Assembly: GCA_963757935.1 (NCBI GenBank)
Contig: CAVWSZ010000016.1
Coordinates: 206,321 to 270,320, forward strand
Length of the DNA stretch: 64,000 nucleotides
Source of the DNA: an uncultured Bacteroidales bacterium
GTDB taxonomy: Bacteria > Bacteroidota > Bacteroidia > Bacteroidales > VadinHA17
Reading direction: 5' to 3'
In this document: positions 16,080 to 32,762 of the stretch, in pieces
Position numbering within the stretch: position 1 is the stretch's first letter
Layout of the letters: the number at the start of each line of letters is the position of its first letter
Notes under the pieces: generated by a model
Databases searched by the model: none
What the model saw: only the letters and a program-made list of their open reading frames with translations
What the model was told of the DNA's origin: nothing
Position numbers and translations under genes: made by a program

Positions 16080-16152
16080 TGATATCAGCGTAACCTTAAA
16101 ATTGGTACGGATTTTGTTATATTCAGATAAAGATAACTTTAGGAGGGTTAAG

Positions 16153-17566
16153 ATGAAAAAATTCAGGTACATAATCCCGGTAATTCTGGTGGCAGCAAGC
16201 TCGTGTACATCACAGCTTTTCACCGGAACTGCTTATGATGATCTCTATTACAGGGAGTCAGATCAGCCGGTTGTAGCGGTACAGCAGAACTCCCCTGACA
16301 GGACAACGGAGCAGTATTATGACAATATCTTTGCCGGCGACACACTTATCGCTGACGAATATGTGCCGTATGACGAGTCAATTGCACAGGAAGTTATTCT
16401 GAAAGACGGTTCAATAGATAATAATTACTATAATTACCTGAGCCCCTCAGATCAGATTTATCTGTTCAATGACAGCTATTTCTACCCCTACTGGAGAGAC
16501 CCGTTCTACTTCAGCCCTTTCTCAACAAGGCTCTCATTCGGATATAATTATTTCGGATCTCCCTACTTCGGTGGCGGAATGTATGATCCTTTCTGGTATG
16601 ACTCCTATATGTACAGCCCCTATATGTATAATCCCTACTACTCATATAACCCATACTGGGGCTATAACTCGTACTGGGGTTACGGATACAATCCATGGAT
16701 GTATTCAGGCTACTATAACAACGGCTACTATTACCAGAGTAATGATGCGAACAGTAACTATATCGCCCGCAGGGGAGGTTTCAGCACATCAATGAGGACA
16801 GGTACTACCGGTGACGGCAGGAACAAGGCCGGTTCATCATATACCCAGGGAAATGTTGCCTCAGGTTCGCAGGGGACTATTCCTTCGAGGAGATCAACCT
16901 ACGGTACAACTGACGGCACGAATACAACTAACAAGATCCGGCTCCGGCGTTTCGAGGACCTCTACCGACGGTACGAGAACTTATTCAGCACCCAACACAG
17001 TAACTCAGAATCCGGGTTATACCCGCCGCGAACAGACAGGCATCTCAACACAGGTAAGATCGCAGGGTCAGATTCCCGCACAGGGAGAAACAAGGACACA
17101 GAGCGTAAACAGGCCACAGTACCAGACAACTGAAAGAACATACACACCGAGCTATAATAACCCCAGGATGAGTTCCAGGCCGTCATACAACAACAGCCGG
17201 AGTACAACCGAAGGCAGTGGCACATCTGTCTACAACAACCAGGGGGCTGTCAGAAGCAGCAGCAGTACACCGGGTCAGTCGAGAACGCAGTATAACAACA
17301 GCTCATCAGGTTACACGCCCTCCAGGTCCTCCTCCTCACCTTCCTATTCAGCACCATCACGGAGCAGCGGCAGCACCTCGGTAAGTTCCGGAAGCCGTAG
17401 CAGCAGCGGAGGTTCTTCATACTCGGGAGGCAGCTCCAACTACTCGTCAGGATCAAGATCCTCATCATCGGGCAGCTACAGCTCAGGTTCTTCCTCAGGT
17501 TCTTCCTCAGGTTCTTCGTCATCATCCTCTTCATCATCTGAAGGTTCGGGAGGAAGAAGGAGGTAA
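16153..17566 (+). pseudogene. Second Tyr/Trp/Gly-rich lipoprotein with a poly-Ser tail, one frameshift as sequenced
   Basis: The ATG at 16153 gives the lipobox MKKFRYIIPVILVAASSC, with a GGAGG 6 nt upstream. The Y/W-rich core reads MYNPYYSYNPYWGYNSYWGYGYNPWMYSGYY. The frame of ORF 16102-17133 and the frame of ORF 16811-17566 join around 16925-16945. The tail ends ...SSGSSSGSSSGSSSSSSSSSEGSGGRRR. Confidence 0.55.
17483..17518 (+). repeat. 12-bp tandem repeat TCAGGTTCTTCC x3 (encodes SGSS repeats)
   Basis: Read directly in the poly-Ser tail of the preceding gene. Confidence 0.85.
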
Positions 17567-19165: not shown

Positions 19166-19795
19166 TCACTCCGGAGACTTCAGCAGCAATGCTTTAGTCT
19201 CCGGTCCGTTATTGAGCAGGAGGTCAATGATGCTTAATCCCGGCACAAAACCGTACCTGTCAGAGAATACCTGCGTATAATCCGCGCCAGGATTCCTGAA
19301 TGCTCCTTCAGACTTTTTTGGAGTGAGAGTATATCTGTAGTCGGCTTCAGCAATTCCTTCACCTGTAAACTCACCGGTGAAACGTACCGGCACATTTATC
19401 CCTATGGCATCAAGCATAGCCTTCAGGGCATTATAATTAAGGTCGAGCAGGTACCTGAAATCACCGGTTATGACCTCCTTCAGGATATCGAAATAGAATT
19501 CGAAATACGGTGCAGTGGCATAGGCTGACATTATGCCCCGCAGATGAAGCTCACGCCATCTGCGGCTGCTGTCGATTTCAATATCTCTTACAGGTGTCTT
19601 GTGAAATGACCCGCGCAAAACAGGAACTACGAGATCAAGCGGCCCGTTTGCCCCAAGAATTGTACACCTGTTGCGGTATGTCTGTTTGTGATAGTTCTCC
19701 CACCTTTCAATCTGAACATCCCCGGCACCGGCTATGAGAGTGAAATATCTTGCCGGTGGAAAATAGGCGGTGGAAAGAAGAACTGTGGCAGCCAT
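19166..19795 (-). CDS. WbqC-family protein (function unknown)
   Basis: 209 aa. The N-terminus LSTAYFPPARYFTLIAGAGDVQIERWENYHKQTYRNRCTILGANG matches my recollection of the WbqC-like family. It starts 5 nt after the larB stop. Confidence 0.65.
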   Translation of the reverse strand: MAATVLLSTAYFPPARYFTLIAGAGDVQIERWENYHKQTYRNRCTILGANGPLDLVVPVLRGSFHKTPVRDIEIDSSRRWRELHLRGIMSAYATAPYFEFYFDILKEVITGDFRYLLDLNYNALKAMLDAIGINVPVRFTGEFTGEGIAEADYRYTLTPKKSEGAFRNPGADYTQVFSDRYGFVPGLSIIDLLLNNGPETKALLLKSPE

Positions 19796-19800
19796 TGTTT

Positions 19801-20547
19801 TCAGAGCCGGTTGATCCTGCTGGCTGAAAACCCCGCACCGAAACCGTTGTCGATATTTACAACTGTCACTCCGGCAGCGCAGCTGGTGAGCATGGCAAGC
19901 AATGCGGAGATCCCTTCGAAAGAAGCCCCGTAACCCACGCTTGTGGGTACGGCAATGACCGGCATGTTAACAAGACCTCCGATTACACTTGCGAGTGCCC
20001 CCTCCATTCCGGCTATGACAATAGCTACCCTGCATTCACGGATCTCGGGCAGCTTGTCAACCAGCCTGTGAATTCCGGCAACACCTGCATCATAGATTCT
20101 TACTACCTCGTTGCCGAGTAGCTCTGCTGTGACTGCTGCCTCCTCCGCAACAGGAATATCAGAAGTCCCGGCAGTGATGACAGCAATCTTCTTCGGCTGC
20201 GGAATTATCTCCTTTTTTTTGATGCTGATTATCCGCGCAACTTCATAATATACCGAATGGGGAAAGTGTATCCTGATGTAATCGTTCAGACTCCTGTCTG
20301 CCCTGGTACCTATAATATTGTTTTCATGTTCCTCCATCACGGCGAAAATTGCCCTTACCTGTTCATGCGTCTTGCCCGCACAGTAGACAATCTCCGGATA
20401 ACCCGTACGTAGTTCACGGTGATGATCTATCCGGGCAAACCCGAGATCACTGTATGAAAAGTTCTGCAGCTTTTCCATGGCCTCGTTTACCTGCAGTGAA
20501 CCGTCCTTTATATGGTTCAGTATATTCTCAAGCTCTCTGGCATTCAT
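19801..20547 (-). CDS. larB: Nickel-pincer cofactor biosynthesis protein LarB (NaAD carboxylase/hydrolase, PurE-like)
   Basis: 248 aa with a PurE-like C-terminal half (KIAVITAGTSDIPVAEEA ... AIVIAGMEGALASVIGGLV ... PVIAVPTSVGYG). Confidence 0.85.
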   Translation of the reverse strand: MNARELENILNHIKDGSLQVNEAMEKLQNFSYSDLGFARIDHHRELRTGYPEIVYCAGKTHEQVRAIFAVMEEHENNIIGTRADRSLNDYIRIHFPHSVYYEVARIISIKKKEIIPQPKKIAVITAGTSDIPVAEEAAVTAELLGNEVVRIYDAGVAGIHRLVDKLPEIRECRVAIVIAGMEGALASVIGGLVNMPVIAVPTSVGYGASFEGISALLAMLTSCAAGVTVVNIDNGFGAGFSASRINRL

Positions 20548-20548
20548 T

Positions 20549-21349
20549 TCATTCGATTTTCCGGTTCATACTTCCTGTACGGTACCCTTCGAGATCTACC
20601 GTAATATAACTGTATCCCAGCGCTTTAAGTTTCGTGGTAATGCCGGTCCTCAGTTTCTCATCAAGTAATGAAGTCATGTTTTCAGTTCTGCATTCTATCC
20701 TTACAACATCACCATGCACCCTAACCCTTGATCCCTTCAGCCCGAATCCGGTTAGAATATCTTCAGCAGCTTCAGCCTTTCTGAGTTCTTCCGGTGTGAT
20801 CACCGTTCCGTGGGGAAAGCGAGTCATGAGACAGGCATTCGAAGGCTTGTCCCATGTTGGGAGTCCGGCCTCCCGGGAAAGTGCCCTTATGTCTTCCTTG
20901 CTCATTCCTGCTTCAAGCAGCGGGCTCCTTACACCGAACTCCTTCAGGGCTCTCATGCCCGGACGGTAGTCGGATACATCATCCAGATTGGTACCGTCAA
21001 ATACATAGTTGAATCCGGCCTTAACGGCCTCACCCGTTATGAGGTTCATGACTTCCCGCTTGCACAGATAGCATCTCTCCGGAGGATTGTTCCCGACAAC
21101 ATCAGGAATTCCCATTATGATCTGCCTGTGATCAATGCCATGACCGGTGCAGAATGCAATGGCTTCGCTCACCTCAGAAGCGAACATGTAGGGCGAATTT
21201 ACAGTCACGGCAAGCAGCCTTAGTTCTTTTACTTCCGAGGCGACCCAGGCGAGGAAAACACTGTCGGTGCCTCCTGACAGGGCCACCACAGCTGATCCTG
21301 CCTCTGCAAGCAGGTTCCTTAGTGTTTGCAGTTTTTCTTCCCTCTTCAT
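20549..21349 (-). CDS. larE: ATP-dependent sulfur transferase LarE (PP-loop)
   Basis: Start chosen at the ATG at 21349 (MKREEKLQTL...), which overlaps the larC stop as ATGA. PP-loop motif: VVALSGGTDS. Cysteines lie at ERCYLCK and SNACLMTRF. Confidence 0.85.
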   Translation of the reverse strand: MKREEKLQTLRNLLAEAGSAVVALSGGTDSVFLAWVASEVKELRLLAVTVNSPYMFASEVSEAIAFCTGHGIDHRQIIMGIPDVVGNNPPERCYLCKREVMNLITGEAVKAGFNYVFDGTNLDDVSDYRPGMRALKEFGVRSPLLEAGMSKEDIRALSREAGLPTWDKPSNACLMTRFPHGTVITPEELRKAEAAEDILTGFGLKGSRVRVHGDVVRIECRTENMTSLLDEKLRTGITTKLKALGYSYITVDLEGYRTGSMNRKIE

Positions 21350-22665
21350 TTCAGGTTGCCTGTCAGTGTCATGATCTCCTGTATTACCTGCTTCATCGGA
21401 AGGCCTGTTTCCGTGGCTATGGCCGCACACCTGTCAGCCTCGGGTTTAACGGAGACAAGACGTCCGTTGAAGAATGATTTTTTTATAACCACTTTACCGA
21501 AACGGGTCTCAATCTCTTCAAACTCGCGCTGAAGGGTCTCCTTTATAAACGGAATGATCCTCAGTCCGATTGTCGACGATTCGGTGAAGAGTATTTCACG
21601 GATATCACTTATCCTTTCTTCCTCGCATATAATGCTGATTGTAAACGCAGGCCTGCCCTTTTTCATGATGACAGGGGTGAACCATACATCCTTTGCGCCT
21701 GAGGCAAAAAGCTTTGCGGAAATATATTCAGACAGTTCGGGATTCATGTCGTCAATGTTGCACTCTACAATCATCGACTGGTGGCCTGAAACGGCCTTTT
21801 CATCGGTGTCAGCCAGATAAACCCTGAGAATGTTCGGCAGTGAAGGATTGTCCTTCTGTCCGATCCCATAGCCGGCTTTCTCTATTATATAACGCAGGTC
21901 TGCCGGTGCCGGTTCAGCCAGGGCGGCAATTATTGCAGCGCCGGTGGGGGTGGTGGCTTCAAAGCCGACTCCTCCGCGGTGCACCGGGAAACCCTTTATT
22001 ATGCGGGCAGTCGCCGGTGCCGGCACCGGCAGCAACCCGTGTTCACATCTTACCATGCCGCTTCCAAGTTCAAGATCAGAAACATAGACCTTCTCAACAT
22101 TCAACGCCCTGAAGCAAATGGCCGCACCCACGATATCAATAATTGAGTCCACGGCACCCACCTCATGAAAGTGAATCTCATTCACCGATACATTGTGTAC
22201 CGCAGCCTCTGCCTCGGCGATAACGCCGAAGATCCTCAGGGCCAGATCCTTTACATCCGGACCGAGAGAGCTGGAATTAATTATAAGCTCTATATCAGAT
22301 AGATTCCTTCGGCTGTGGCTGTGGCTGTGGCTGTAGTCATGGTCATGGTCATGGTCGTGGTCATGGCTGTGGTTGTGGTTGTGATCATGTTTGTGGTCAT
22401 GATTGTGATCATGGTCGTTATCATGGTGGTGATCATGACCCGCATGGCCATGTTCAGCGTTATTCTCCCCGCTGGTAATTACTGTGACCTTTGTTCCGGA
22501 GATGCCGTGCCTCTGATCCTTCATTATATCCAGTTTCCACCCTTCCAGGTTTAGCCTGGCGAGACCGTCGGTAAGAGTCTCCCGGGTTACTCCCAGGTCA
22601 AGCATTGCGCCGAGGTTCATATCGCCGCTGATGCCTGAGAAACAATCGTAATATAATATCTTCAT
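21346..22665 (-). CDS. larC: Nickel insertion protein LarC (single uninterrupted ORF)
   Basis: 439 aa. The N-terminus MKILYYDCFSGISGDMNLGAMLDLGV is typical of LarC, and there is a His/Asp-rich metal-binding tract. Confidence 0.85.
   Translation of the reverse strand: MKILYYDCFSGISGDMNLGAMLDLGVTRETLTDGLARLNLEGWKLDIMKDQRHGISGTKVTVITSGENNAEHGHAGHDHHHDNDHDHNHDHKHDHNHNHSHDHDHDHDHDYSHSHSHSRRNLSDIELIINSSSLGPDVKDLALRIFGVIAEAEAAVHNVSVNEIHFHEVGAVDSIIDIVGAAICFRALNVEKVYVSDLELGSGMVRCEHGLLPVPAPATARIIKGFPVHRGGVGFEATTPTGAAIIAALAEPAPADLRYIIEKAGYGIGQKDNPSLPNILRVYLADTDEKAVSGHQSMIVECNIDDMNPELSEYISAKLFASGAKDVWFTPVIMKKGRPAFTISIICEEERISDIREILFTESSTIGLRIIPFIKETLQREFEEIETRFGKVVIKKSFFNGRLVSVKPEADRCAAIATETGLPMKQVIQEIMTLTGNLK
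22312..22455 (-). repeat. Coding low-complexity tract (His/Asp/Asn repeats) in larC
   Basis: Encodes EHGHAGHDHHHDNDHDHNHDHKHDHNHNHSHDHDHDHDHDYSHSHSH. On the plus strand it appears as GTGGTCATG-like imperfect repeats. Confidence 0.9.
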
Positions 22666-22817
22666 ACTGTTGTCTTATCTGTTAAACCCGGAGCTCTCTT
22701 CCCCTCTGCCAGGTCGCTCTCCCGGGCCTGCTAATATAGCACTTGGTTACGATAAATTTAAAAATAATGTGTATTTTGCACGTTCTTTAAAGTGGGGTAA
22801 TTCAATTAAAAGAAGGT

Positions 22818-23744
22818 ATGAAAAGAAGGCAGTTTTTAAGAAATTCCGTCGGGGCAGGGCTTGCTGCCGGCACATTCCTGAGTCTGGGCAGATATGAGAA
22901 AGCGATAGCAGGGACTCCGCTGCCGGCTGCTGCCAGCTATGATCTGATTGCTGTAAAAGGTGGCGAACCAGCCGCCATGTTCGACATAGGTATTCAGGCA
23001 ATGGGCGGAATGGGATCGTTTGTCAGCAAGGGACAGAAAGTCGTTATTAAACCCAATATAGGCTGGGATGTGGTACCTGAAAAGGGTGGTAATACCAATC
23101 CTGCCCTCGTAAAACGTGTTATAGAACATTGCCTGAAAGCGGGAGCAAAAGAGGTTTATGTGTTTGACAACACCTGTGACAACTGGATAAGATGTTACAA
23201 GAATTCAGGAATAGAACAGGCCGCAAAAGACGCCGGAGCCAAAATAGTTCCTGCCAACTCCGAGAGTTACTACCAGGAAATATCGATCCCCAACGGGAAA
23301 AAGCTTACAAAGGCAAAAGTCCATGAGCTGATTCTTTCGAGTGACGTATTTATAAATGTCCCCATACTTAAACATCACAGTTCCGCCAAGATGACGGGAG
23401 CCCTGAAGAATATGATGGGTGTTGTCTGGGACCGTGGCTTCTGGCACAAAAATGACCTTAACCAGTGTATTGCCGACTATGCACTTTTTTCAAAGAAACC
23501 GCAGCTTAACGTCATGGATGCCTATAATGTCATGATGCGTAACGGTCCGCGTGGAGTGTCGAAAGATGACCTGTCTCTGATGCAGTCATTACTGCTTTCA
23601 ACCGACTGGGTTGCAATTGATGCAGCCGGTGCCAAAATGATGGGTCTTGAACCGTCACAAATAAATTATTTACCAATAGCTGCCGGAATGGGTCTGGGCA
23701 AGATTGACCTTGCCACAATGAATATCCACAGGATTAAAATGTAA
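22818..23744 (+). CDS. Tat-signal DUF362-family protein (function unknown)
   Basis: 308 aa with a twin-arginine signal, MKRRQFLRNSVGAGLAAGTFLSLG. DUF362-type blocks are present: KVVIKPNIGW and ILKHHSSAKMTGALKNMMG. Confidence 0.8.
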   Translation: MKRRQFLRNSVGAGLAAGTFLSLGRYEKAIAGTPLPAAASYDLIAVKGGEPAAMFDIGIQAMGGMGSFVSKGQKVVIKPNIGWDVVPEKGGNTNPALVKRVIEHCLKAGAKEVYVFDNTCDNWIRCYKNSGIEQAAKDAGAKIVPANSESYYQEISIPNGKKLTKAKVHELILSSDVFINVPILKHHSSAKMTGALKNMMGVVWDRGFWHKNDLNQCIADYALFSKKPQLNVMDAYNVMMRNGPRGVSKDDLSLMQSLLLSTDWVAIDAAGAKMMGLEPSQINYLPIAAGMGLGKIDLATMNIHRIKM

Positions 23745-23750
23745 CACCTG

Positions 23751-25318
23751 ATGAGGTCTTCGGCGTTAAAACATATCCGGGTTGTATTTTCGGTAATTGT
23801 CCTATTTGCTCTTGCCCTGCTCTTTCTCGATTTCAGGGGTATGGTTCCCGTGAAGGCATTCGGTCCGCTGCTTTACCTGCAGTTTGTGCCCTCGTTACTT
23901 AAATTTGCAATTGCCGGCGTTGCCGCAGCAACTGGATTCATGGTTATAATTCTGATAACTGTCATCACAGGCCGTACCTATTGCTCATTTCTCTGTCCGC
24001 TCGGAATACTTCAGGATGTGATAAGCAGGGTAGGAGGCACATTCAAAAGACGGTTCCGGAAATACGGCTTCAAGAAGCCCTACACAGTACTCCGTTACTT
24101 CATTCTTGCAATGACAGCCGGGATAATGCTTCTCGGCGGAGCCTACGTCCTCACAATCCTTGATCCGTACAGCACCTTCGGCCGGTTCATGACATACTTC
24201 GGCAAGCCGGCCCTGATCTTCCTGAACAACCAGGTAGCTGCACTCCTCGGGGAATTTGATATTTACACGATTTACAAAGTTGATATTAAGACATACCAGC
24301 TTGCTGCATATGCAGTGCCTGTAAGTTTTGTGCTGCTCGTGGGCATACTCTCTTTCCGGTACGGCAGGCTTTACTGCAACACTGTATGTCCGGTCGGAAC
24401 TTTTCTCGGCCTCCTGAGCAAGGTATCACTCTTCAGGATCAGGTTTGACGAGTCGGCATGTACCCGTTGCGGCCGCTGCGCTGCATGCCTGCAAATCATC
24501 ATGCATCGATTTTCTCCACCGCCATGTCGACGTAACGCGGTGTGTCAATTGCTTCAACTGTCTTGATGCATGTTCCGAGAAAGCGATGGGATACGGACTG
24601 GTAAGGCTGAAAAAGCCTGTGACTCCTGTCGAACCTGATGCTTCACGTCGTCAGTTCATTGCCGGGTCATTGCTTTTTCTCGCAGGAACATCACAGCTGG
24701 TCAGGAGCACAGGACAAAACTGCACCTGTACCCACAAAGGATTCTACAGTAAAGGAAGACAGACTCTATCCTGTTTCACCTCCCGGCTCTATCGGGACTT
24801 GGAAAATTTACAGACAGGTGTACGGCATGCTCACTATGCGTCAGCGCCTGCCCCACCAGTGTCCTGCAGCCATCTGTCAGTGAGTATGGTTTTGCAGGCA
24901 TTATGCAGCCCAGGATGGATTTTCACAGCGGCTTCTGCAACTATGAGTGCACTATCTGCACTGATATCTGCCCCACAGGAGCCATCATGCCGCTTGATGC
25001 TTGAGGCAAAGAAACTTACCCAGATCGGGAAAGCAGTCTTTATTAAGGATAACTGCATTGTAAAAACTGAAAAGACGGCCTGCGGAGCCTGCTCAGAACA
25101 CTGTCCTACAAAAGCCTGTTCGATGATCCCGTATGAAGGTACACTTGTCATTCCGGAAGTAATAGACGATATATGTATCGGGTGCGGTGCCTGTGAACAC
25201 GCCTGTCCCACGAGACCTTACCGTGCAATATTTGTAGACGGCAACCCGAATCACGAGGCAGCTAAAAAACCTGAAATAAAAGAACTTCAGGTATACAACC
25301 GAAGATTTCCCCTTCTGA
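23751..25318 (+). pseudogene. Membrane-anchored polyferredoxin (NapH-like membrane part plus several 4Fe-4S domains), about 5 frameshifts as sequenced
   Basis: The N-terminus has several TM segments with the membrane Cys motifs YCSFLCPLGILQD and YCNTVCPVGTFLG. Ferredoxin motifs are spread over three frames: CTRCGRCAA/ACKSSC, CVNCFNCLDAC, CTACSLCVSACP, CNYECTICTDICP, CGACSEHCP and CIGCGACEHACP. The frame path is 0>1>2>0>1>2. The end is either 25318 (alternative frame ...EDFPF*) or 25434. Confidence 0.7.
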
Positions 25319-25447: not shown

Positions 25448-25864
25448 ATGAAACCAACACATATTGAGCATATCGGAATTGCGGTAAATTCACTGGCAGA
25501 GGCAATTCCCTTTTATGAAAAAGTGCTGGGCGTAAATTGCTACAGCATTGAAGAAGTTGCTGAACAGAAGGTTAAGACAGCATTCTTCATGATTGGACAG
25601 ACCAAGATCGAACTTCTCGAGTCAACGGATCCTGAGGGTCCGGTAGGCAAATTTATAGAAAAGAAGGGCGAAGGCATTCACCATATCGCTTATGCCGTTG
25701 AGAATATCGAGGAGAGTCTGAAAGAGGCAGAGGCAGCCGGCATCAAACTCATCGACCTTCATCCGCGTCGCGGAGCCGAAGGCATGAATATTGCCTTCCT
25801 GCACCCAAAATCCACATTCGGTGTGCTCACAGAGTTTTGCGAAGACAGTAATAAAAGAAAATAA
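25448..25864 (+). CDS. mce: Methylmalonyl-CoA epimerase (VOC/glyoxalase fold)
   Basis: ATG at 25448. MKPTHIEHIGIAVNSLAEAIPFYEKVLG ... GEGIHHIAYAV. It is the first gene of the decarboxylase operon. Confidence 0.8.
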   Translation: MKPTHIEHIGIAVNSLAEAIPFYEKVLGVNCYSIEEVAEQKVKTAFFMIGQTKIELLESTDPEGPVGKFIEKKGEGIHHIAYAVENIEESLKEAEAAGIKLIDLHPRRGAEGMNIAFLHPKSTFGVLTEFCEDSNKRK

Positions 25865-25879
25865 TAAATACCACGTTCA

Positions 25880-27439
25880 ATGAACAGTCAGGAAAGAATT
25901 CAACAGCTTCTGGATTACAGGGATAAGGCGCGCAAGGGCGGAGGCGACAAGCGTATTGATGATCAGCATTCAAAGGGAAAGCTAACAGCCAGGGAGCGTA
26001 TTACAATGCTGCTCGATGAGGGCAGTTTTGAAGAGTATGACATGTTTGTCACACACCGTACCGAGGATTTCGGTCTGGCAGACAAGAAGTTCCTCTCAGA
26101 CGGTGTAATCACAGGCCACGGTACAATTGACGGCCGTATCGTCTTTGTTTTTGCCCAGGACTTTACCGTTTTCGGCGGATCTCTTTCCGAGACTTTTGCA
26201 CAGAAGATATGCAAGATAATGGACCAGGCGATGCAGGTGGGAGCACCTTTGATCGGCATTAATGACTCAGGCGGTGCAAGAATCCAGGAAGGTGTACGCA
26301 GTCTTGCCGGCTATGCTGAGATATTCGAGCGCAATATCCTGGCTTCAGGAGTTATCCCTCAGATATCAGCCATTTTCGGACCCTGTGCAGGAGGAGCAGT
26401 TTATTCTCCTGCCCTGACAGACTTCATAATAATGAACAAGAAGAACAGCTATATGTTTGTCACCGGCCCGAAGGTGGCAAAGGCTGTTACCGGTGAAGAT
26501 ATCTCAATTGAGGATCTCGGCGGCGCAATAATGCATGCAACAAAATCAGGCGTGGCTCACTTTGTCTGCGAAGATGAGGAAGAGGGCCTGGACCTGATCA
26601 GGAAGCTTCTTTCCTTCATGCCGCAGAATAACCTCGAGGAACCTCCGCAGACAGACTGTGATGACCCGATTGACAGGCTTGAGGATGAACTTAATGATAT
26701 AATTCCCGAAAGCCCCAACCAGCCTTATGATGTCAAAGATGTAATAAGCAGGGTGGTGGATTATCATGACTTTCTGGAAGTGCATGCACTGTATGCAAAG
26801 AATATTATTGTGGGGTTTGCCAAGTTTGACGGAATGCCTGTGGGCATTGTTGCAAACCAGCCCTGCTTCCTCGCAGGTGTTCTGGATATCGAAGCCTCAC
26901 GCAAGGCAGCCCGTTTCATAAGATTCTGTGATGCATTCAATATCCCGATAGTTACATTTGTTGATGTTCCGGGGTTCCTTCCCGGATCAACGCAGGAGTA
27001 CGGCGGCATAATTATTCACGGCGCCAAACTCATGTTCGCCTACGGTGAAGCCAATGTACCCAAGATTACAGTCACACTCAGGAAATCCTACGGCGGAGCC
27101 CATTGTGTAATGTCTTCAAAACAGCTTCGCGGTGATCTTAACTATGCATGGCCAACGGCAGAGATAGCTGTTATGGGCCCCCAGGGTGCCATCGAGGTAC
27201 TTGAAGGCAAAACCATCAGCGAGATTGAGGATCCCAAGCAGAGAAAAGAGTATGTCACCAGGAAGGAGGACGAATACCGGCTTAAATTTGCAAATCCTTA
27301 TGAGGCAGCGAGGTACGGCTATCTTGATGATGTAATTGAACCGCGAAACACAAGGTTCAGGGTCATCAGGGCATTGAGAACTCTTTCCACCAAGAAGGAT
27401 CCCGGACCAATGAAGAAACATTCGAATATTCCACTCTAA
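25880..27439 (+). CDS. mmdA: Methylmalonyl-CoA decarboxylase alpha subunit (acyl-CoA carboxyltransferase)
   Basis: 519 aa of the propionyl-CoA carboxylase beta / MmdA family (GKLTARERI..., [26 protein letters not shown]). Confidence 0.85.
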
Positions 27440-27441
27440 TA

Positions 27442-27820
27442 ATGAGGATCAATGAACTGTATCAGCTATTTCCGCGGTATACGGTCAGGTATTTGATTCA
27501 CTGACCTGGATAATAGTCCTGGTGGGTATTGGTATTGTTTTTCTCTCACTTCTGATCATTTACCTCTTTTTCAGGTATGTTCTGACATTTATCCTGAACT
27601 TCAGGCTGAAGAGTTTTGCCCGCAAAAAGGGCATCGATCCGGCAGAGGTATACAGACCAAAACTATGATGTCAGGTGAGGTCAATGCAGCCATTGCAATG
27701 GCACTCTATTCTTATTTTAATGAAATGCACGATGTGGAGAGCGGCATAGTTACGATAAAGCGCGTATCAAAAAATTATTCTCCGTGGAGTTCAAAACTTT
27801 ATAATATGAAAAATCTTTAG
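27442..27820 (+). pseudogene. mmdD: Small membrane subunit (OadG/MmdD-like), about 2 frameshifts as sequenced
   Basis: Three frame pieces are visible: MRINELYQLF..., the TM segment ...LTWIIVLVGIGIVFLSLLIIYLFF..., and the tail SGEVNAAIAMALYSYFNEMHDVESGIVTIKRVSKNYSPWSSKLYNMKNL. The tail is typical of the delta/gamma small subunit in Bacteroidota. Confidence 0.55.
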
Positions 27821-27851
27821 TAACAGAAGATTAAGTCTAAGGAAATCCGAA

Positions 27852-28285
27852 ATGAAAAACTACAAATTCACGATAAACGGAAACCAGTACGAGGTTGAGG
27901 TTCATGAGATTGAAGGTAACATGGCCACGCATCGAGGTTAACGGCACCGACATACCAGGTTGAATTGCACCAGGAGGTACCGAAAACCAGGCCAGTTCAG
28001 CCGGCAGCAGCACCAAGAGCTGCGGCGAAGGAAAGTTCCTCCCCGGCTCCTGCCAAAAAGAGCGGAGGACCGTCTACAGGAGTGAAAGCTCCTCTGCCGG
28101 GAGTGATACTCCAGGTACTTGTCAGACCCGGTGATGAGGTTAAAGCCGGACAGACACTGTGCACGCTGGAGACAATGAAAATGGAGAATGCCATTAAAAC
28201 TGATATCGCCGGTACTGTGGCTTCGGTTAAGGTCAACCCCGGTCAGTCAGTTTTGCAGGATGAACTGTTAATTGAAATCAACTGA
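27852..28285 (+). pseudogene. mmdC: Biotin carboxyl carrier subunit, 2 frameshifts as sequenced
   Basis: The sequence starts MKNYKFTINGNQYEVEVHEIEGNMA, continues IEVNGT in the +1 frame, then YQVELHQE... in the next frame. An Ala/Pro linker follows, then the biotinyl motif LETMKMEN. The breaks are near 27925-27930 and 27945-27950. Confidence 0.75.
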
Positions 28286-29641
28286 TGATGGCAAAGAGAA
28301 AACTATGGACCATGCTTGGGATGCTGGTGATCATATCACTGGCATGGACTGCCTTTGTGAAACCAGAGAAGGAGAAAGCGGAGGCATTGAAAGCTGCCGG
28401 TATTGAAAACATTTCGGCTTTACCCCAGTATCAGGCTTCTGATCCGGGGGAATCACAGCTGTCACAGGGTCTTAAGCAATTCTGGGCCTATACCGGATTC
28501 CGGAATGCCACCTCCGGTCACCTGATAATGATAGTTGTCGGATTGGTCTTTATCTTCCTCGCAATAAGATATGAGTATGAACCTCTGCTGCTGATACCAA
28601 TCGGTACCGGCATACTGATCGGAAACATACCCTTTTTACAGGATGGAGACCTGAACCTGCAGGTAGGAATTTATCAGCAGGGCAGTGTGCTGAATTACCT
28701 CTATTTCGGAGTCCTGAAAGGGAATTTATCCTCCTCTTATCTTTCTCGGGATCGGAGCAATGACAGACTTTTCTTCCCTGATCTCCAATCCAAGGCTTCT
28801 GCTTCTGGGAGCAGCAGCACAACTTGGTATATTTGTAACTTTTCTTGGTGCAATTGCCCTTGGTTTTCCAAAACCTGAGGCTGCTGCCATTGGAATTATC
28901 GGCGGCGCAGACGGTCCGACAGCTATCTTTCTGTCTTCCAGACTTGCAAATGGCATAAACATTCTGCCTGACGGTACGACAGTGAAAAACCTGATCGGCC
29001 CTATTGCAATTGCTGCTTATTCATATATGGCGCTGGTTCCGGTCATTCAGCCGCCGATCATGAGACTGATGACCTCAAAGAAGGAGCGGCTTATCCGCAT
29101 GAAACCTCCGAGAGTTGTAACCAAAACGGAAAAGATACTGTTTCCGATTTTCGGGCTGCTTCTTACCTGTTTCATTTCACCGAGCGCACTTCCGCTACTT
29201 GGAATGCTCTTCTTCGGTAACCTGCTGAAGGAGTCAGGGGTCACTAAAAGACTTGCCGAGACTGCCAGAACATCACTGATTGATATTGTTACAATAATAA
29301 TAGGTCTGACAGTTGGTGCCTCAACCCAGGCTGATGTATTTCTTACCAAAGAATCTGTACTGATTTTCGGACTGGGAGCATGTGCATTCGGCGTGGCAAC
29401 CTTCGGAGGTGTTGGTTTCGCCAAGGTCATGAATCTGTTCCTGCCTGAGGATGACAAGATCAATCCTCTCATCGGTAATGCCGGAGTCTCGGCAGTACCT
29501 GACAGTGCCCGTGTTTCTGAGATGGAAGGGCTGAAGTCCGATAAGACAAACCACCTGCTGATGCATGCCATGGGACCTAATGTGGCAGGCGTAATTGGCT
29601 CTGCAATTGCTGCAGGGATTCTGCTGGGATACCTTGGTTAA
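28285..29641 (+). pseudogene. mmdB: Na+-translocating decarboxylase beta subunit, 1 frameshift as sequenced
   Basis: ORF 28285-28878 and ORF 28760-29641 join if one G is removed from the GGG at 28720-28722. The join gives ...[42 protein letters not shown]..., typical of the OadB/MmdB family. Confidence 0.85.
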
Positions 29642-29663
29642 AGGCCCTGGTATTAAAATTTAA

Positions 29664-29692
29664 GGACCGCCGGAAACGACGGTCTTTTTTTT
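29664..29692 (+). terminator. Rho-independent terminator after mmdB
   Basis: GGACCGCCGGAAACGACGGTC is followed by TTTTTTTT, about 25 nt after the stop. Confidence 0.7.
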
Positions 29693-29761
29693 CACGGCAG
29701 GGTAAAAAGTAAGGTCTGCCTGATAGTGATCTATCTCATTCTTTATGCCGGAATATTTATT

Positions 29762-29769
29762 TAAGTTTG
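29762..29769 (+). promoter_or_regulatory. TAnnTTTG -7 motif (TAAGTTTG)
   Basis: Exact consensus match, ending 26 nt upstream of the citD-citE ATG at 29795. Confidence 0.4.
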
Positions 29770-29794
29770 TATAACACTACCTAAAACAGCGGAG

Positions 29795-31012
29795 ATGACA
29801 CAATGCGTAACCGGAAACGCCGGCCCAAAGGTGAGATCTGATATAGAGGTGACCCTTGAACTTACAGATTCGGGCGGCATTGAACTCAGTATTAAGTCAA
29901 AGGTGAAAAGCATGTACGGCATTGCCATCGATAAGCAATGCCGGGAGCTGCTGACACACTTCGGTATCACAAATGCCAGGATGTCGGTAAACGATTCCGG
30001 TGCACTTCCTTTTGTGATCGCCGCAAGGATTGAAGCCGCTGCAAGGGCACTGGGGAAAATCCATTCAGAATTCCTCCCGGAGATGCTTCCTGAAAACCTG
30101 TACACATCTGAGAGGGGACGTTTTCGCTTTTCAAGGCTCTATCTTCCGGGCAACAGTCCCGGCATGTTCCTGAATGCAGGTCTACACTCACCTGACGGCG
30201 TGATACTTGACCTTGAGGACTCAGTTGCTCCGGCAAGAAAAGATGAAGCCCGCATTCTTGTCAGAAATGCCCTTCGCGCCGTTGACTTTTACGGGGCTGA
30301 AAGAATGATCCGCATTAACCAGGGGCAGCGTGGACTCGAGGACCTTGAATGGCTGATCCCCCATAATGTGCACCTTGTGCTGGTTCCAAAATGTGAAGAT
30401 CCGGCGACGCTTGTTGAAATTGAGAAAAAAATAAAATCGATTCAGAAAGGGGAGAAGGATTCACACCCCGTATTCCTGATGCCTATAATTGAAACCGCCC
30501 TTGGCGTTGAAAATGCTTTCGGCATAGCCCGGGCTACACCCAATGTGGTTGCACTGGCTATCGGGCTTGAAGACTACACTGCCGACCTGGGCGTCCAGCG
30601 AACAAAAGAGGGAGCGGAGTCGCTCTATGCACGCACAAGGATAGTGGTGGCAGCGAAAGCTGCAGGTATTCAACCCATCGATTCAGTATTCTCTGACGTA
30701 GGAGACATGGATGGCCTCATGAACAATATAATTTCATCGAAGGCGCTGGGATTCGAAGGAATGGGATGTATCCACCCGAGGCAGATCCCGGTGATCAGAC
30801 GGGGCTTCTCACCCACACCAGATGAAATTGAAAAGGCGAAAAAGATTGTAATCGCTTTCAGTGATGCTCAGGCAAAGGGCCTCGGTGTTGTTTCCCTGGG
30901 GACTAAAATGATAGATCCTCCTGTTGTGGCGAGGGCTGAAAAGACAATCAATCTCGCCGTGAAACTGGGATTGCTGCCGGAGAAATGGGCAGAGGAAGAG
31001 ACAATTGAATAG
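29795..31012 (+). CDS. Fused citrate lyase acyl carrier protein (CitD) and citryl-CoA lyase beta subunit (CitE)
   Basis: 405 aa. Residues 1-95 look like CitD (...SDIEVTLEL..., VNDSGALPFVIAARIEAAARAL). The rest is HpcH/CitE-like (RLYLPGNSPGMFLNAGLHSPDGVILDLEDSVAPARKDEAR). Confidence 0.8.
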   Translation: MTQCVTGNAGPKVRSDIEVTLELTDSGGIELSIKSKVKSMYGIAIDKQCRELLTHFGITNARMSVNDSGALPFVIAARIEAAARALGKIHSEFLPEMLPENLYTSERGRFRFSRLYLPGNSPGMFLNAGLHSPDGVILDLEDSVAPARKDEARILVRNALRAVDFYGAERMIRINQGQRGLEDLEWLIPHNVHLVLVPKCEDPATLVEIEKKIKSIQKGEKDSHPVFLMPIIETALGVENAFGIARATPNVVALAIGLEDYTADLGVQRTKEGAESLYARTRIVVAAKAAGIQPIDSVFSDVGDMDGLMNNIISSKALGFEGMGCIHPRQIPVIRRGFSPTPDEIEKAKKIVIAFSDAQAKGLGVVSLGTKMIDPPVVARAEKTINLAVKLGLLPEKWAEEETIE

Positions 31013-31031
31013 TTAATTAGAAGCTTTAGCC

Positions 31032-32582
31032 ATGAAAATGACAGAAAATGCTGCCGGCAGGCTTGTTCCGGATGAAATCAACGGAGTAAAAGCAGTGCCT
31101 TTCAAAGGCGTAGGGAAACACCGTCCGGACGGCCGTAAGTATGGGCCTCCCATTCCCACATGCATTGACTTTCCTGATGACAACAACAAAGTGGTTGGCT
31201 CACTGCAGGAGGCGCTTGAAAAATGTGGACTGAAAGACGGGATGACAATTTCCACACATCACCATCTCCGCGACGGTGACCTTGTCAGCAATAAGATATT
31301 TGACATTGCATCTGCAATGGGGATAAAAGGCCTTACCTGGCTGCCGTCGGCATCTTTCCCCTGCAATGACCCGGTGATAGCGTATCTTGAGGACGGGACA
31401 ATAGACCATATTGAGGGCAGCATGAACGGACCCCTCGGAAGGTTTGTCTCCGAAGGAAGGATGAAGGGAATGGCCGTTCTGCGTTCGCATGGAGGACGGG
31501 TTCAGGCAATTCAGGACGGTGAGGTGAAGATTGATATTGCCGTTCTGGCAGCACCGGCCTCCGACTCTTTCGGCAATGCCCGTGGCACTGGCGGCCCCTC
31601 GGCAACCGGAGTGCTCGGATATGCTAAGGCTGACTACCTGTACGCCGATAAGGTAATCGTTGTGACTGACAACCTGGTGGACCTTCCCTGTTTCCCAATG
31701 GAAATTGAGGGTAACTATGTCGATTATGTGGTGCTGGTTGATAAGATCGGTATACCTGAAAAAATAGTCTCCGGCACTACCCAGATCACAAAAAGCCCTG
31801 ACAGACTTCTCATTGCAGAACTGACTGCAACATTTCTTGAAAAATCGGGACTGCTGCGTGACGGAGCAACAATGCAGGCCGGGGCAGGCGGCACCAGCCT
31901 TGCAATTGCTGTTTACGCCCATGAGATTCTGAAGAAGAAAGGGTGGAAATTCCGGTTCGGTTTCGGCGGAAGCACAAAATACATGGTACAGATGCTGGAA
32001 GAGGGGCAGATGGGTTATATACTTGATGCCCAGGCATTTGATCTTGACTCTGTGAGGTCAATAGAGATAAACCCCAACCATATTCCTTACCCGGTATTCA
32101 ATGCCTACAATTACCATTCGAAGGGCAACCTGACAGCGATGATGGATATCATGATCCTGGGAGCCACCGAAATAGACATTAATTACAACGGAAATGTAGT
32201 CACCCACTCTGATGGCCTTCTGCTGCACGGCATCGGCGGATGGCAGAACTGTCTCCACGCGCGCAATGTAATAATACCTGTTCCGCTGTTCCGTGACAGG
32301 ATCCCCGTGATTGTGGACCGGGTTACTACTCTCTGCGGCCCTGGAGAACTCATCGATGTTATAATCACCGAAAGGGGTATTGCAATCAACCCCCGGAGAC
32401 AGGATCTTATTGACTCTGTAAAGGGAACGGGATTGCCGGTTATGACTATTGAAGAACTGAAGGATATGGCCGAGAGAATGTGCGGCAAACCTGAAAAGGC
32501 TGCAGTTGATGACCGTGTCGTGGCTGCCATAAAATGGGTTGACGGCACAGTTATTGATGCTGTCCGAAAAGTGAAATATTAA
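31032..32582 (+). CDS. citF: Citrate lyase alpha subunit (citrate CoA-transferase)
   Basis: 516 aa of the CitF family, by overall similarity and by context directly after citD-citE. Confidence 0.85.
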   Translation: MKMTENAAGRLVPDEINGVKAVPFKGVGKHRPDGRKYGPPIPTCIDFPDDNNKVVGSLQEALEKCGLKDGMTISTHHHLRDGDLVSNKIFDIASAMGIKGLTWLPSASFPCNDPVIAYLEDGTIDHIEGSMNGPLGRFVSEGRMKGMAVLRSHGGRVQAIQDGEVKIDIAVLAAPASDSFGNARGTGGPSATGVLGYAKADYLYADKVIVVTDNLVDLPCFPMEIEGNYVDYVVLVDKIGIPEKIVSGTTQITKSPDRLLIAELTATFLEKSGLLRDGATMQAGAGGTSLAIAVYAHEILKKKGWKFRFGFGGSTKYMVQMLEEGQMGYILDAQAFDLDSVRSIEINPNHIPYPVFNAYNYHSKGNLTAMMDIMILGATEIDINYNGNVVTHSDGLLLHGIGGWQNCLHARNVIIPVPLFRDRIPVIVDRVTTLCGPGELIDVIITERGIAINPRRQDLIDSVKGTGLPVMTIEELKDMAERMCGKPEKAAVDDRVVAAIKWVDGTVIDAVRKVKY

Positions 32583-32601
32583 TCCCTGAAAAAGTTATAA
32601 T

Positions 32602-32762
32602 ATGAATAGATATAAATGCCCGGTGTGCGGATATCTGTACGATCCGGAGATTGGTGATGAGATTGCCGGTGTTGAACCGGGAGTGGCCTTTGAAGACCTT
32701 CCGTCAGGATGGTTTGTCCTGTATGCGGGGCTCCCCACGACGATTTTGAGGAGTACGATTAA
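32602..32762 (+). pseudogene. Rubredoxin, 1 frameshift as sequenced
   Basis: The sequence starts MNRYKCPVCGYLYDPEIGDEIAGVEPGVAFEDLPSGW. The second metal-binding knuckle, CPVCGAPHDDFEEYD*, follows in the -1 frame. The break is at the TTT run at 32713-32715. Confidence 0.8.

Follow-up and report, generated by a model that had tools for sequence, protein, structure and literature searches.

A larA-less nickel-pincer nucleotide operon back-to-back with a DUF362-polyferredoxin module in a Bacteroidales bacterium

The analysis of a 64-kb stretch of Bacteroidales DNA (the window, meaning here the whole stretch) raised the question of which protein makes use of the nickel-pincer nucleotide (NPN) when the genes for its synthesis are found in a larA-less setting. 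The initial annotation proposed that a divergently encoded DUF362 protein accepts NPN and serves in the periplasm as a hydride-transfer enzyme, with a polyferredoxin encoded behind it as the wire to the membrane. The features of the locus are collected in Table 1.

Table 1. Features of the lar operon, the divergent spacer and the DUF362-polyferredoxin pair
Feature	Coordinates	Strand	Description
wbqC-family gene	19166..19795	-	209 aa; final gene of the lar operon; Pfam PF08889, 124.6 bits (cut-off 21.3)
larB	19801..20547	-	248 aa; NCBIfam NF033503 equivalog, 296 bits (cut-off 175); Pfam AIRC
larE	20549..21349	-	266 aa from ATG 21349; TIGR00268, 286 bits (cut-off 150)
larC	21346..22665	-	439 aa; Pfam Ni_insertion, 464 bits; NCBIfam LarC1, 206.6 (cut-off 90), and LarC2, 141 (cut-off 50)
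Divergent intergenic region, 152 bp	22666..22817	.	Between larC and the DUF362 gene
Tat-signal DUF362 protein	22818..23744	+	308 aa; Pfam PF04015, 182 bits; LarA-superfamily fold (model)
NapH-NapG fusion polyferredoxin (PFD class)	23751..25318	+	520 aa once corrected; five +1 insertions

The genes on the minus strand follow the order larC-larE-larB-wbqC, and the coordinates confirmed both this layout and its junctions: the larE start overlaps the larC stop as ATGA at 21346-21349, larE and larB are separated by 1 nt (20548) and larB and wbqC by 5 nt (19796-19800). LarB, LarE and LarC1 plus LarC2 exceeded the NCBIfam equivalog cut-offs, and WbqC, Ni_insertion and DUF362 exceeded those of Pfam. 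We take LarB to be the NaAD carboxylase/hydrolase of NPN biosynthesis, LarE the sulfur insertase and LarC the CTP-dependent nickel insertase. LarE carries an SGGTDS PP-loop together with Cys93, Cys96 and Cys172, the counterparts of Cys92, Cys95 and Cys172 in T. maritima LarE (PMC9283937), and these residues place it in the catalytic [4Fe-4S] CXXC-C type. A His/Asp-rich insert is encoded in larC, and its His-rich tract differs in length among relatives via in-frame indels at 22313-22355. The genes of the operon are under strong purifying selection (dN/dS 0.055-0.11). As far as its coding sequences tell, larC-larE-larB is a complete, intact NPN operon, LarA-less in the window, and the WbqC-family gene is co-transcribed with it.

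The claim that the 64 kb hold no LarA was borne out. A tblastn search of the window with three LarA structures gave nothing below E=4.9, and Pfam scans of window ORFs of at least 200 aa detected no LarA, AKR or ornithine-cyclodeaminase (OCD) family; the ProRS, citrate-lyase and OAD-beta ORFs lay outside these scans and were assigned via the annotations of relatives. The accompanying statement that NPN is used by LarA enzymes alone no longer holds, as NphT, which has an AKR fold and was discovered through operon membership, and an NPAD-dependent ornithine cyclodeaminase are also users (PMC13524815). Like known larBCE loci with no larA nearby, the window has an adjacent candidate client with conserved Lys and His. 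Three things set it apart from them: its candidate belongs to the LarA clan and does not have an NAD(P)-enzyme fold, the gene for it diverges from the operon instead of lying inside it, and the protein would be periplasmic and Fe-S-wired. Within the 64 kb no other candidate NPN client was seen, though the lar operon is clearly under selection, a point against reading the locus as two separate units.

The operon's NPN-related partner might instead be the WbqC-family protein, either as a client or as a tailoring enzyme, in which case it would act as a nucleotide-dependent ligase or transferase on NPN or an NPN precursor. We consider this improbable. Its gene belongs to the same transcription unit, was kept behind larB wherever a lar-linked locus had room for it, down to 42% identity, and is under purifying selection (dN/dS 0.11 against L001, the closest relative); the client NphT, found by operon membership, is a precedent (PMC13524815). 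The AF2 model of WbqC (pLDDT 80) had a sole notable PDB match, to BshC in its ADP-binding, Rossmann-like domain (4wbd; E 9e-3, prob 0.97, TMq 0.40), but this fold match is weak and no PDB match was obtained at E<=1e-3. Moreover, canonical NPN synthesis requires no fourth enzyme, and the WbqC family is otherwise found in polysaccharide/O-antigen loci beside DegT aminotransferases with no lar link, as in BT2884-85 of B. thetaiotaomicron (PMC10434189).

The twin-arginine start of the DUF362 protein, MKRRQFLR, was confirmed. Its signal consists of KRRQFLR, a hydrophobic region and AIA, and twin-arginine signals are conserved in the family (R3 at least 90%); the dN/dS of the gene is 0.010. The suggested comparison of its fold with LarA gave a positive result. 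When an AlphaFold (AF2) model (pLDDT 86, pTM 0.84) was run against the PDB with Foldseek, all 18 matches at E<=1e-3 were of the LarA family (E 3e-6 to 8e-5), headed by 9q3j, a LarA homolog with a single catalytic His. The LarA/DUF2088 superfamily (PDB 5HUQ, 2YJG, 6D6Z, 9EIA, 9Q3J), which comprises NPN-dependent 2-hydroxyacid racemases and epimerases, was the sole source of significant matches. By this model the DUF362 protein has a LarA fold. Pfam places DUF362 and DUF2088/LarA_N in one clan, CL0471 (PMC11770544); it gave no LarA family at E<=0.01 for the protein itself, and no sequence-level match to any LarA chain was found.

Across 79 diverse DUF362 relatives, nine residues (K78, D176, N180, K185, H187, K197, N198, R206 and H210) showed a conservation of at least 90%. 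H187, K197 and H210 were retained in 74 of these relatives and lost jointly in the other five, where K197 and H210 were missing in every case and H187 in four. The top local hhalign alignment, with two independent DUF362 alignments, put D176/H187/K197 on LarA D163/H174/K184 with identical spacing. On sequence grounds alone, however, this residue mapping is statistically unsupported, with an hhalign probability of ~0.2% and inconsistent HMMER alignments; His187, Lys197 and His210 may correspond to His174, Lys184 and His200 of LarA. The His-x9-Lys spacing equals that of LarA His174-Lys184, and a conserved His follows further downstream. A co-varying His/Lys/His triad with this spacing is what an NPN site would be expected to look like, an observation that runs counter to the two-unit reading of the locus given below. 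The differences from LarA are a mature length of ~270 aa against ~424 aa, the lack of the S-D-x-T-R loop and of a His108 equivalent, the constant pairing with a membrane polyferredoxin, and predicted export by Tat, whereas characterised LarA enzymes are to our knowledge all cytoplasmic.

DUF362 and polyferredoxin genes were adjacent in 80 of 80 species loci from genomes and in 4 further look-ups. Among distant metagenomic loci that span 7 kb or more and yielded the DUF362 ORF, nearly all also had the polyferredoxin downstream of it, and the genes flanking the pair there were otherwise unrelated. The pair, found at more than 150 loci, forms an ancient two-gene module that stands on its own. The suggested check for conserved synteny of larBCE with this module gave a largely negative result: lar genes were missing at ~12 orthologous loci outside one Bacteroidales clade (Ignavibacteria, Melioribacteraceae, Tenuifilaceae and others) and at all 80 distant metagenomic loci. 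Inside that clade the whole ~20-kb neighbourhood is syntenic, with the arrangement ProRS...OMP / lar / DUF362-PFD / MCE ... CitEF ... M20; the adjacency is inherited within one clade and is no general property of the module. Divergent lar-DUF362 adjacency was seen in ~65 species, even at LarC identity down to 44%, and at four loci (L069, L077, L082 and L084) the junction was kept despite changed flanks, which hints at selection for linkage rather than mere inheritance. In ~10 lar-linked species the operon has no larE, and no lar::DUF362 fusion was found among the longest family representatives.

The polyferredoxin gene begins at 23751, at the annotated distance of 6 nt from DUF362, but does not form the single ORF that had been assumed. 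In comparison with L001, which has 91% nucleotide identity and an intact gene of 520 aa, it carries one extra base at each of five positions, 24486(T), 24709(A), 24791(A), 24997(A) and 25293(A), and none of these +1 shifts is compensated. These could be explained by a genuine, recent inactivation, leaving the DUF362 module dead or decaying beside a functional lar operon, which would argue against functional coupling of lar and DUF362. The five insertions crowd into 808 bp (24486-25293) and all lie outside homopolymers, and since five frameshifts in 0.8 kb exceed the background of ~1 per 3 kb elsewhere in the 18-kb alignment several-fold, a real inactivation in this strain keeps a small chance. 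It is nevertheless unlikely. Once corrected, the protein shares 97.9% identity with that of L001, with a dN/dS of 0.025 on either side of the first frameshift, equal to that of its neighbours, and with neither deletions nor an excess of nonsynonymous changes. Furthermore, a full-length single tblastn match (~515-540 aa) was obtained in almost every relative with a contig that spans the gene. Because five neighbour genes, those for OAD-gamma, OAD-beta, BCCP, rubredoxin and p470, are likewise frameshifted against L001, an M16 peptidase gene is frameshifted too, and the OAD and BCCP genes belong to core energy metabolism, the frameshifts are most likely assembly indel errors and not gene death.

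The corrected polyferredoxin has four strong TMDs, two CX3CP motifs and six Cys motifs of the [4Fe-4S] type, of which four are canonical (CxxCxxCxxxC) and two are variants. An internal RRQFIAG precedes a weakly hydrophobic TMD5, which is followed by positive charges. NCBIfam matched NapH/MauN to the N-terminal half and NapG/NapF to the C-terminal half, the Tat-signal region of NapG itself aligning with RRQFIAG; since the NapH, NapG and NapF scores are all below the family cut-offs, the protein is not a NapG or NapH ortholog. It belongs to the PFD class of dual Sec/Tat NapH-NapG fusions, in which topology features were shown experimentally, as described for Q1NSB0 of delta proteobacterium MLMS-1 in the sections of Tooke et al. 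2017 (PMC5449189) on this protein. The two proteins share four NapH-like TMDs with CX3CP, cytoplasmic-side [4Fe-4S] motifs, four NapG-like periplasmic clusters and a twin-arginine motif directly before a TMD5 of weak hydrophobicity, behind which positive charges follow. The window protein differs in having two cytoplasmic-side clusters instead of three, a frame broken five times and a Tat-exported DUF362 partner, those sections of PMC5449189 mentioning neither DUF362 nor another periplasmic partner. With NapGH, NosGH and MauMN it shares the domain content and the presumed link from the quinol pool to a periplasmic redox enzyme; unlike them it is fused into a single polypeptide, and genes for nitrate reductase, N2O reductase, methylamine dehydrogenase and cytochrome c are absent nearby in the window.

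Gene identities, fold class, pairing and neighbourhood distribution lead us to favour, by a little, the reading that the locus consists of two functional units placed back-to-back, a LarA-less lar operon and a DUF362-polyferredoxin module. The DUF362 protein would be folded, and presumably loaded with its cofactor, in the cytoplasm and then exported by Tat. The polyferredoxin, inserted via Sec and Tat with five TMDs, would bear two [4Fe-4S] clusters on the cytoplasmic and four on the periplasmic side and, by analogy with NapGH, most likely serves as the electron conduit that links the DUF362 enzyme in the periplasm with the menaquinone pool; the direction of this flow and the substrate and cofactor of the enzyme are conjectural. 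The picture of an enzyme in the periplasm with a polyferredoxin wire to the membrane is well supported by membership in the dual Sec/Tat class (PMC5449189) and by the invariable pairing with DUF362.

Whether this enzyme depends on NPN made in the cytoplasm by LarB, LarE and LarC is more doubtful, although NPN is tentatively its leading candidate cofactor. NPN would be tethered to Lys197 and its Ni bound by His210, with His187 as acid/base; once exported, the holo-protein would use the polyferredoxin to trade electrons or hydride equivalents with the quinone pool, and genomes with no adjacent lar genes would encode lar elsewhere. The LarA-restricted structural matches, the common clan, the equal spacing of the aligned residues and the joint loss of the triad all argue for such an enzyme, as do the lar junction kept under changed flanks and the absence of LarA, AKR and OCD from the window. 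Export by Tat implies that folding and cofactor loading take place in the cytoplasm, and Lys plus His are the NPN signature in the unrelated fold of NphT too (PMC13524815). Against it stand the statistically unsupported residue mapping, the missing S-D-x-T-R loop and second catalytic His of LarA, the lack of fusions and the operons with no larE. Four of the five triad-less relatives retain twin-arginine signals, so export of DUF362 is independent of the triad. We know of no precedent for a hydride cofactor, which transfers two electrons, being coupled to 1-electron Fe-S clusters. Finally, the adjacency counts as about a single evolutionary event against dozens of independent genomic contexts, and because it reflects inheritance within one Bacteroidales clade the locus does not demonstrate NPN use by DUF362. 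The protein is a plausible new NPN user, and this is directly testable.

The divergent spacer was confirmed at 152 bp and matched no Rfam family. Both putative promoters sit in it, and two blocks were kept in 19 lar-linked relatives: GCTAATATA at 22730-22738, and, at 22761-22783, an A-rich tract with TGTATTTTGCA behind it. Loci that lack lar have no GCTAATATA box upstream of their DUF362 gene.

The listing of open reading frames and direct reading of the sequence bore out the initial annotation of four tightly coupled minus-strand genes, larC, larE, larB and wbqC, together with their junctions: the larC stop overlaps the larE start as ATGA at 21346-21349, and gaps of 1 nt and 5 nt separate larE from larB and larB from wbqC, respectively. 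The mechanical ORF of larE reaches a GTG at 21430; the ATG at 21349 fits the 266-aa protein of the relatives. LarB is assigned as the carboxylase/hydrolase of NPN biosynthesis, LarE as the PP-loop sulfur transferase and LarC as the nickel insertase, of which both parts, LarC1 and LarC2, are present. LarE carries the PP-loop SGGTDS and Cys93, Cys96 and Cys172; the LarE of Thermotoga maritima, which is of the catalytic [4Fe-4S] type, has this CXXC-C motif as well (PMC9283937). The lar genes do not stand out within their families. The operon for the nickel-pincer nucleotide (NPN) is intact and under purifying selection. A model of WbqC (pLDDT 80) showed a weak likeness to the ADP-binding domain of BshC and no other likeness.

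Features of the window and of related loci (L numbers designate loci of relatives; all other positions are those of the window)
Feature	Position	Strand	Match or remark
wbqC	19166-19795	-	Pfam WbqC PF08889, 124.6 bits (gathering score 21.3)
larB	19801-20547	-	NCBIfam NF033503 equivalog, 296 bits (cut-off 175)
larE	20549-21349	-	NCBIfam TIGR00268, 286 bits (cut-off 150)
larC	21346-22665	-	NCBIfam LarC1, 206.6 (90), and LarC2, 141.3 (50); Pfam PF01969 Ni_insertion, 464 bits
Divergent spacer larC-DUF362	between 22665 and 22818		152 bp, from minus-strand larC to plus-strand DUF362
DUF362	22818-23744	+	Pfam PF04015; begins MKRRQFLR
Polyferredoxin (PFD)	from 23751	+	NapH-NapG-type; starts 6 nt after DUF362
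Frameshifts in p470, OAD-gamma, biotin carrier, OAD-beta and rubredoxin genes	16929; 27650; ~27927-27947; ~28716; 32715		relative to L001
M16 peptidase	46190-47475		split into two overlapping ORFs
fam2	L054:3601-4104, L060:9338-9850, L066:9385-9939, L072:9347-9859, L080:9385-9936, L083:9405-9911, L085:9323-9772, L086:9374-9874, L087:9347-9859, L088:9378-9911	-	
TMEM260-like	L066:5343-8240, L072:4012-7035, L081:385-3564, L083:2418-5315, L087:4010-7033, L088:2811-5687		

The absence of LarA from the 64 kb, also noted initially, was confirmed. Tblastn with the sequences of three LarA structures, taken from a PDB search, gave no match in the window, and Pfam detected no LarA, aldo-keto reductase or ornithine cyclodeaminase among the scanned window ORFs (200 aa or longer); ORFs for ProRS, citrate lyase and OAD-beta lay outside that scan and were identified through the annotations of relatives. 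Tblastn also gave no LarA match in 168 related loci, and a canonical lar locus, with a LarA/DUF2088 gene close to larBCE, was not seen. The accompanying statement that NPN is used by LarA-family enzymes alone no longer holds. So far, two clients other than LarA have been reported, NphT, which has an AKR fold, and an NPAD-dependent ornithine cyclodeaminase, and hundreds of larBCE-positive prokaryotic genomes are without LarA (PMC13524815). In the literature searched, no link of DUF362 or WbqC to NPN was found, apart from DUF362 as an outgroup.

The N-terminus of the DUF362 protein, MKRRQFLRNSVGAGLAAGTFLSLGRYEKAIA/G, comprises KRRQFLR, a hydrophobic stretch and AIA and forms a canonical Tat signal. 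All three elements by which a Tat substrate was recognized, an (S/T)RRxFLK motif, an h-region of moderate hydrophobicity and an AxA site for cleavage, are present, in agreement with the twin-arginine signal read in the initial annotation. We aligned 79 diverse DUF362 relatives (32-57% identity, about 47 clusters; alignment A3). In this set the conservation of R3, with which the RR pair begins, is at least 90%, nearly all listed N-termini have RR, and the Pfam TAT_signal is present in the homologs P0125 and P0362.

An AlphaFold2 model of the DUF362 protein was obtained from 43 homologs (pLDDT 86, pTM 0.84); it is confident outside the signal peptide, residues 1-36 being disordered. The comparison of this model with LarA, which had been suggested as a check, was positive: in a Foldseek search, the 18 PDB structures matched at E ≤ 1e-3 all belonged to the LarA family (5HUQ, 6C1W, 8EZF/H, 2YJG, 6D6Z/7S91, 9EIA/D, 9Q3J/K), with E of 3e-6 to 8e-5, probability 1.0, TMq of 0.35-0.52 and 161-278 aligned columns. 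The next matches were generic Rossmann proteins with E > 2e-3. The protein is therefore predicted to have a LarA-type fold. In agreement with this, the known but functionally uncharacterized family DUF362 belongs to the clan of LarA: Pfam places it with DUF2088/LarA_N in clan CL0471, and because of this common clan it has served as the outgroup of a LarA tree (PMC11770544). The relation is at the clan level, PF04015 being the sole Pfam match of the protein, with no membership in DUF2088/LarA_N.

Twelve further positions are at least 90% conserved in the 79 relatives: K78, P79, N80, D176, N180, K185, H187, K197, N198, R206, H210 and D234. K197 is lost in five relatives (P0143, P0149, P0161, P0169 and P0237), all five of which have also lost H210 and four of which have lost H187. 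This joint loss indicates that H187, K197 and H210 behave as one functional unit. Four of the five K197-less relatives retain the twin-arginine signal, which indicates that Tat export is independent of this triad. The best local hhalign alignment, which a shallow and a diverse DUF362 alignment each gave independently, places D176, H187 and K197 onto D163, H174 and K184 of LarA with identical spacing, at a probability of about 0.2%. If this mapping holds, H210 would sit near the LarA Ni ligand His200. Global hhalign and hmmsearch --max against the three LarA sequences yielded alignments that were either uninformative or inconsistent; given these and the low hhalign probability, we regard the residue mapping as no more than a lead. 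Searches of PDB sequences with phmmer and hmmsearch gave no LarA match to DUF362, even with profiles, and on all these grounds a link between DUF362 and LarA at the level of sequence was rejected. The DUF362 protein differs from LarA in having neither the S-D-x-T-R loop nor an equivalent of His108; its best structural match is a LarA homolog that likewise has a single catalytic His.

The gene directly after DUF362 encodes a polytopic polyferredoxin (PFD). The initial annotation had described a multi-TM protein with NapH-like motifs and Fe-S clusters, and the frame-corrected protein agrees with this, although in the window it is not a single ORF. Four strongly hydrophobic TMDs (residues 8-26, 54-72, 118-136 and 184-202), two CX3CP motifs (78-83 and 209-214) and six [4Fe-4S] motifs were found, two of the latter before residue 275 and four at 356-366, 395-406, 434-451 and 474-484. 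An internal twin-arginine motif, RRQFIAGSLLFLAG, starts at residue 299 and is followed by a weakly hydrophobic segment and then by Arg and Lys. NCBIfam profiles, all scoring below their cut-offs, related the N-terminal half to NapH/MauN and the C-terminal half to NapG from the Tat-signal region of NapG onwards. By these features PFD is a member of the described class of dual Sec/Tat polyferredoxins, NapH-NapG fusions that are recognized by four NapH-type TMDs with CX3CP, cytoplasmic clusters, an RR pair immediately ahead of a weakly hydrophobic TMD5 trailed by positive charges, and four periplasmic clusters. According to the passages of Tooke et al. 2017 on this class, Sec inserts the first four TMDs, and Tat translocates the fifth together with the Fe-S domain; the experimental demonstration was made with the MLMS-1 protein (PMC5449189). 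These passages do not mention DUF362 and name no periplasmic partner (PMC5449189).

Three-frame translation revealed that the window polyferredoxin jumps between frames. The reference was L001, the closest relative (Bacteroidales MAG GCA_038248855.1; 91% DNA identity, DUF362 99% identical), which has an intact 520-aa PFD. Compared with it, the frame is broken by five uncompensated single-base insertions at 24486, 24709, 24791, 24997 and 25293. When these five bases were removed, PFD was 97.9% identical to that of L001, and its dN/dS, 0.025 on either side of the first shift, was like that of the neighbouring genes. An old pseudogene was rejected on this value, and the simplest reading is an assembly indel error or a very recent change. 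Five further genes are frameshifted in the 18 kb alignable to L001, including three methylmalonyl-CoA decarboxylase sodium-pump subunits. The occurrence of frameshifts in several genes points to indel errors left in the assembly, for the most part insertions of one base outside homopolymers, and the five PFD insertions are probably errors of this kind. Their density exceeds the local background, which leaves a slim chance that the polyferredoxin is genuinely inactivated in this organism.

The conservation of the locus was analyzed in a scan of one genome per species, which gave 80 loci with DUF362 of 60-99% identity. PFD follows DUF362 in all 80, and the lar operon lies divergently upstream of DUF362 in about 65, with LarC identity down to 44%. 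These ~65 lar-linked loci have the whole ~20-kb neighbourhood in common, in the order ProRS, three uncharacterised envelope proteins, lar, DUF362-PFD, methylmalonyl-CoA epimerase, (decarboxylase) citrate lyase and M20 peptidase; they are essentially one inherited arrangement of a single Bacteroidales clade. In four loci (L069, L077, L082 and L084) lar-DUF362-PFD is kept despite one differing flank, which is mild evidence for selection on the lar-DUF362 junction. DUF362 orthologs outside the clade (57-65% identity) occur in Ignavibacteriaceae, Melioribacter, Rosettibacter firmus, Tenuifilaceae, Prolixibacteraceae and other Bacteroidota, and no lar genes are present within 10 kb of them. In most of these orthologous loci the divergent slot upstream of DUF362 is taken by fam2, a small membrane protein of about 170 aa. 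A second scan, seeded with a distant clade of Tat-DUF362 proteins, yielded 80 metagenomic loci with 34-42% identity to the window protein. LarB, LarC, LarE, WbqC and LarA were found in none of the 80. Where distant loci were at least 7 kb long and the DUF362 ORF was recovered, PFD was downstream in nearly all, usually as the next gene, and the remaining flanking genes were otherwise unrelated. The pairing across unrelated contexts indicates that DUF362 and PFD are an autonomous, ancient two-gene module and that the lar adjacency is lineage-specific. Conservation of the larBCE-DUF362 neighbourhood across Bacteroidota, which the initial annotation had put forward as a check of its proposal, was confined to the one Bacteroidales clade. 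Overall, the data show that PFD is the obligate NapH-NapG-type partner of a Tat-exported DUF362 protein of predicted LarA-type fold.

We lean slightly towards the view that the lar operon and DUF362-PFD are two independent units that are juxtaposed. The initial annotation had proposed that NPN is the cofactor of DUF362, with putative binding of NPN and Ni and hydride transfer. We consider this possible but doubtful. The adjacency to lar in the clade of the window speaks for it, but amounts to about a single event among dozens of contexts. The LarA-type fold and the His/Lys/His triad point in the same direction, whereas the mapping of residues to LarA is unsupported. Tat export and the lack of another client within the 64 kb would also be consistent with NPN in DUF362; on the other side, a Rosetta-stone search found no LarB, LarC or LarE fusion among the ten longest DUF362 representatives, and a hydride cofactor coupled to one-electron Fe-S centres is unprecedented. 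Part of what probability then remains falls to WbqC being the real partner of the lar operon.

By analogy with NapGH, PFD would join the menaquinone pool to the periplasmic DUF362 enzyme via its cytoplasmic-side and periplasmic-side clusters. The triad of DUF362 would form a cofactor or metal site loaded before Tat export. We put forward only tentatively that the triad-bearing Tat-DUF362 proteins are a large unrecognised nickel-pincer branch that acquires NPN in the cytoplasm, is exported in the folded state and receives quinone electrons via the dedicated NapH-NapG polyferredoxin. If true, the nickel-pincer cofactor would for the first time be seen in use in the periplasm and coupled to a respiratory chain, and part of the many larBCE-positive, larA-negative genomes would be accounted for. 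Confirmation would take nickel-pincer chemistry beyond racemisation in the cytoplasm to redox catalysis in the periplasm that is coupled to the membrane. The locus nominates a testable NPN-client candidate from the structural clan of LarA in a very different setting, exported and Fe-S-wired. Apart from NPN, DUF362-PFD is a widespread two-gene module in anaerobes, and the polyferredoxin class, an orphan in the passages of Tooke et al. that describe it, gains a partner in the Tat-exported DUF362 protein consistently encoded upstream. The PFD class, the DUF362 family and the lar families are already known. The consistent pairing of Tat-DUF362 with a dual Sec/Tat polyferredoxin appears to be new, as does the nomination of a LarA-clan DUF362 protein as a periplasmic NPN candidate.

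Two blocks of the divergent spacer are conserved in 19 relatives, GCTAATATA (22730-22738) and an A-rich tract followed by TGTATTTTGCA (22761-22783). The block with TGTATTTTGCA probably serves the DUF362 operon as its Bacteroidetes-type -7 promoter element. A shared operator in the spacer was also considered: the GCTAATATA box is kept in the lar-linked clade and missing upstream of DUF362 elsewhere, which is not decisive. No Rfam match to a regulatory RNA was found in the window.

The lar operon varies among relatives. A His/Asp-rich tract of LarC, HDHHHDNDHDHNHDHKHDHNHNHSHDHDHDHDHDYSHSHSH (22313-22355), differs in length among close relatives through in-frame indels. LarE is missing between larC and larB in about ten lar-linked species (L003, L029, L039, L041, L042, L047, L049, L050, L051 and L056), which keep larC, larB, wbqC, DUF362 and PFD; in L003 a 93-bp gap takes the place of larE. 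Matches to LarB or LarC are merely partial in L059, L067, L073 and L076.

Downstream, at 25448-32759, there is a propionate/citrate fermentation block, which shows synteny throughout the clade and has no connection with the lar-DUF362 finding. It encodes a methylmalonyl-CoA epimerase (TIGR03081, above cut-off), methylmalonyl-CoA decarboxylase alpha, OAD-gamma/BCCP/OAD-beta-type subunits, the citrate lyase subunits CitE and CitF, and rubredoxin. Upstream of the lar operon, the gene at 16102-17566 encodes a protein of very low complexity, rich in Tyr, Asn, Ser and Gly, with a lipoprotein-like N-terminal signal and no Pfam match; it is conserved there together with a 517-aa putative outer-membrane protein.

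Three distant metagenomic loci (L149, L154 and L167) have tandem DUF362 duplicates before a single polyferredoxin gene. In ten of the lar-less orthologous loci examined, a multi-TM protein of 149-184 aa (fam2; about five TM segments by hydrophobic pattern) is encoded divergently upstream of DUF362-PFD, in very different contexts and in the slot that the lar operon occupies in the clade of the window. Fam2 has no Pfam, NCBIfam or PDB match and was not found in the window, the lar-linked loci or the distant loci; its invariant residues include S44, H45, E55, P56, R58, H67, T68, N72, H90, P91 and K95 (alignment A4). That it is a third component or a cofactor-related transporter is pure speculation.

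Genes for TMEM260-like protein O-mannosyltransferases were found within 10 kb of DUF362-PFD in six lar-less loci, in several of them alongside GT9 and/or GT2 glycosyltransferases. Among the ten longest DUF362 representatives there is one PMT_2::DUF362 fusion, P0130, with 778 aa. These neighbours, this fusion and the presence of wbqC in the lar operon give a weak hint of a link to envelope glycans.
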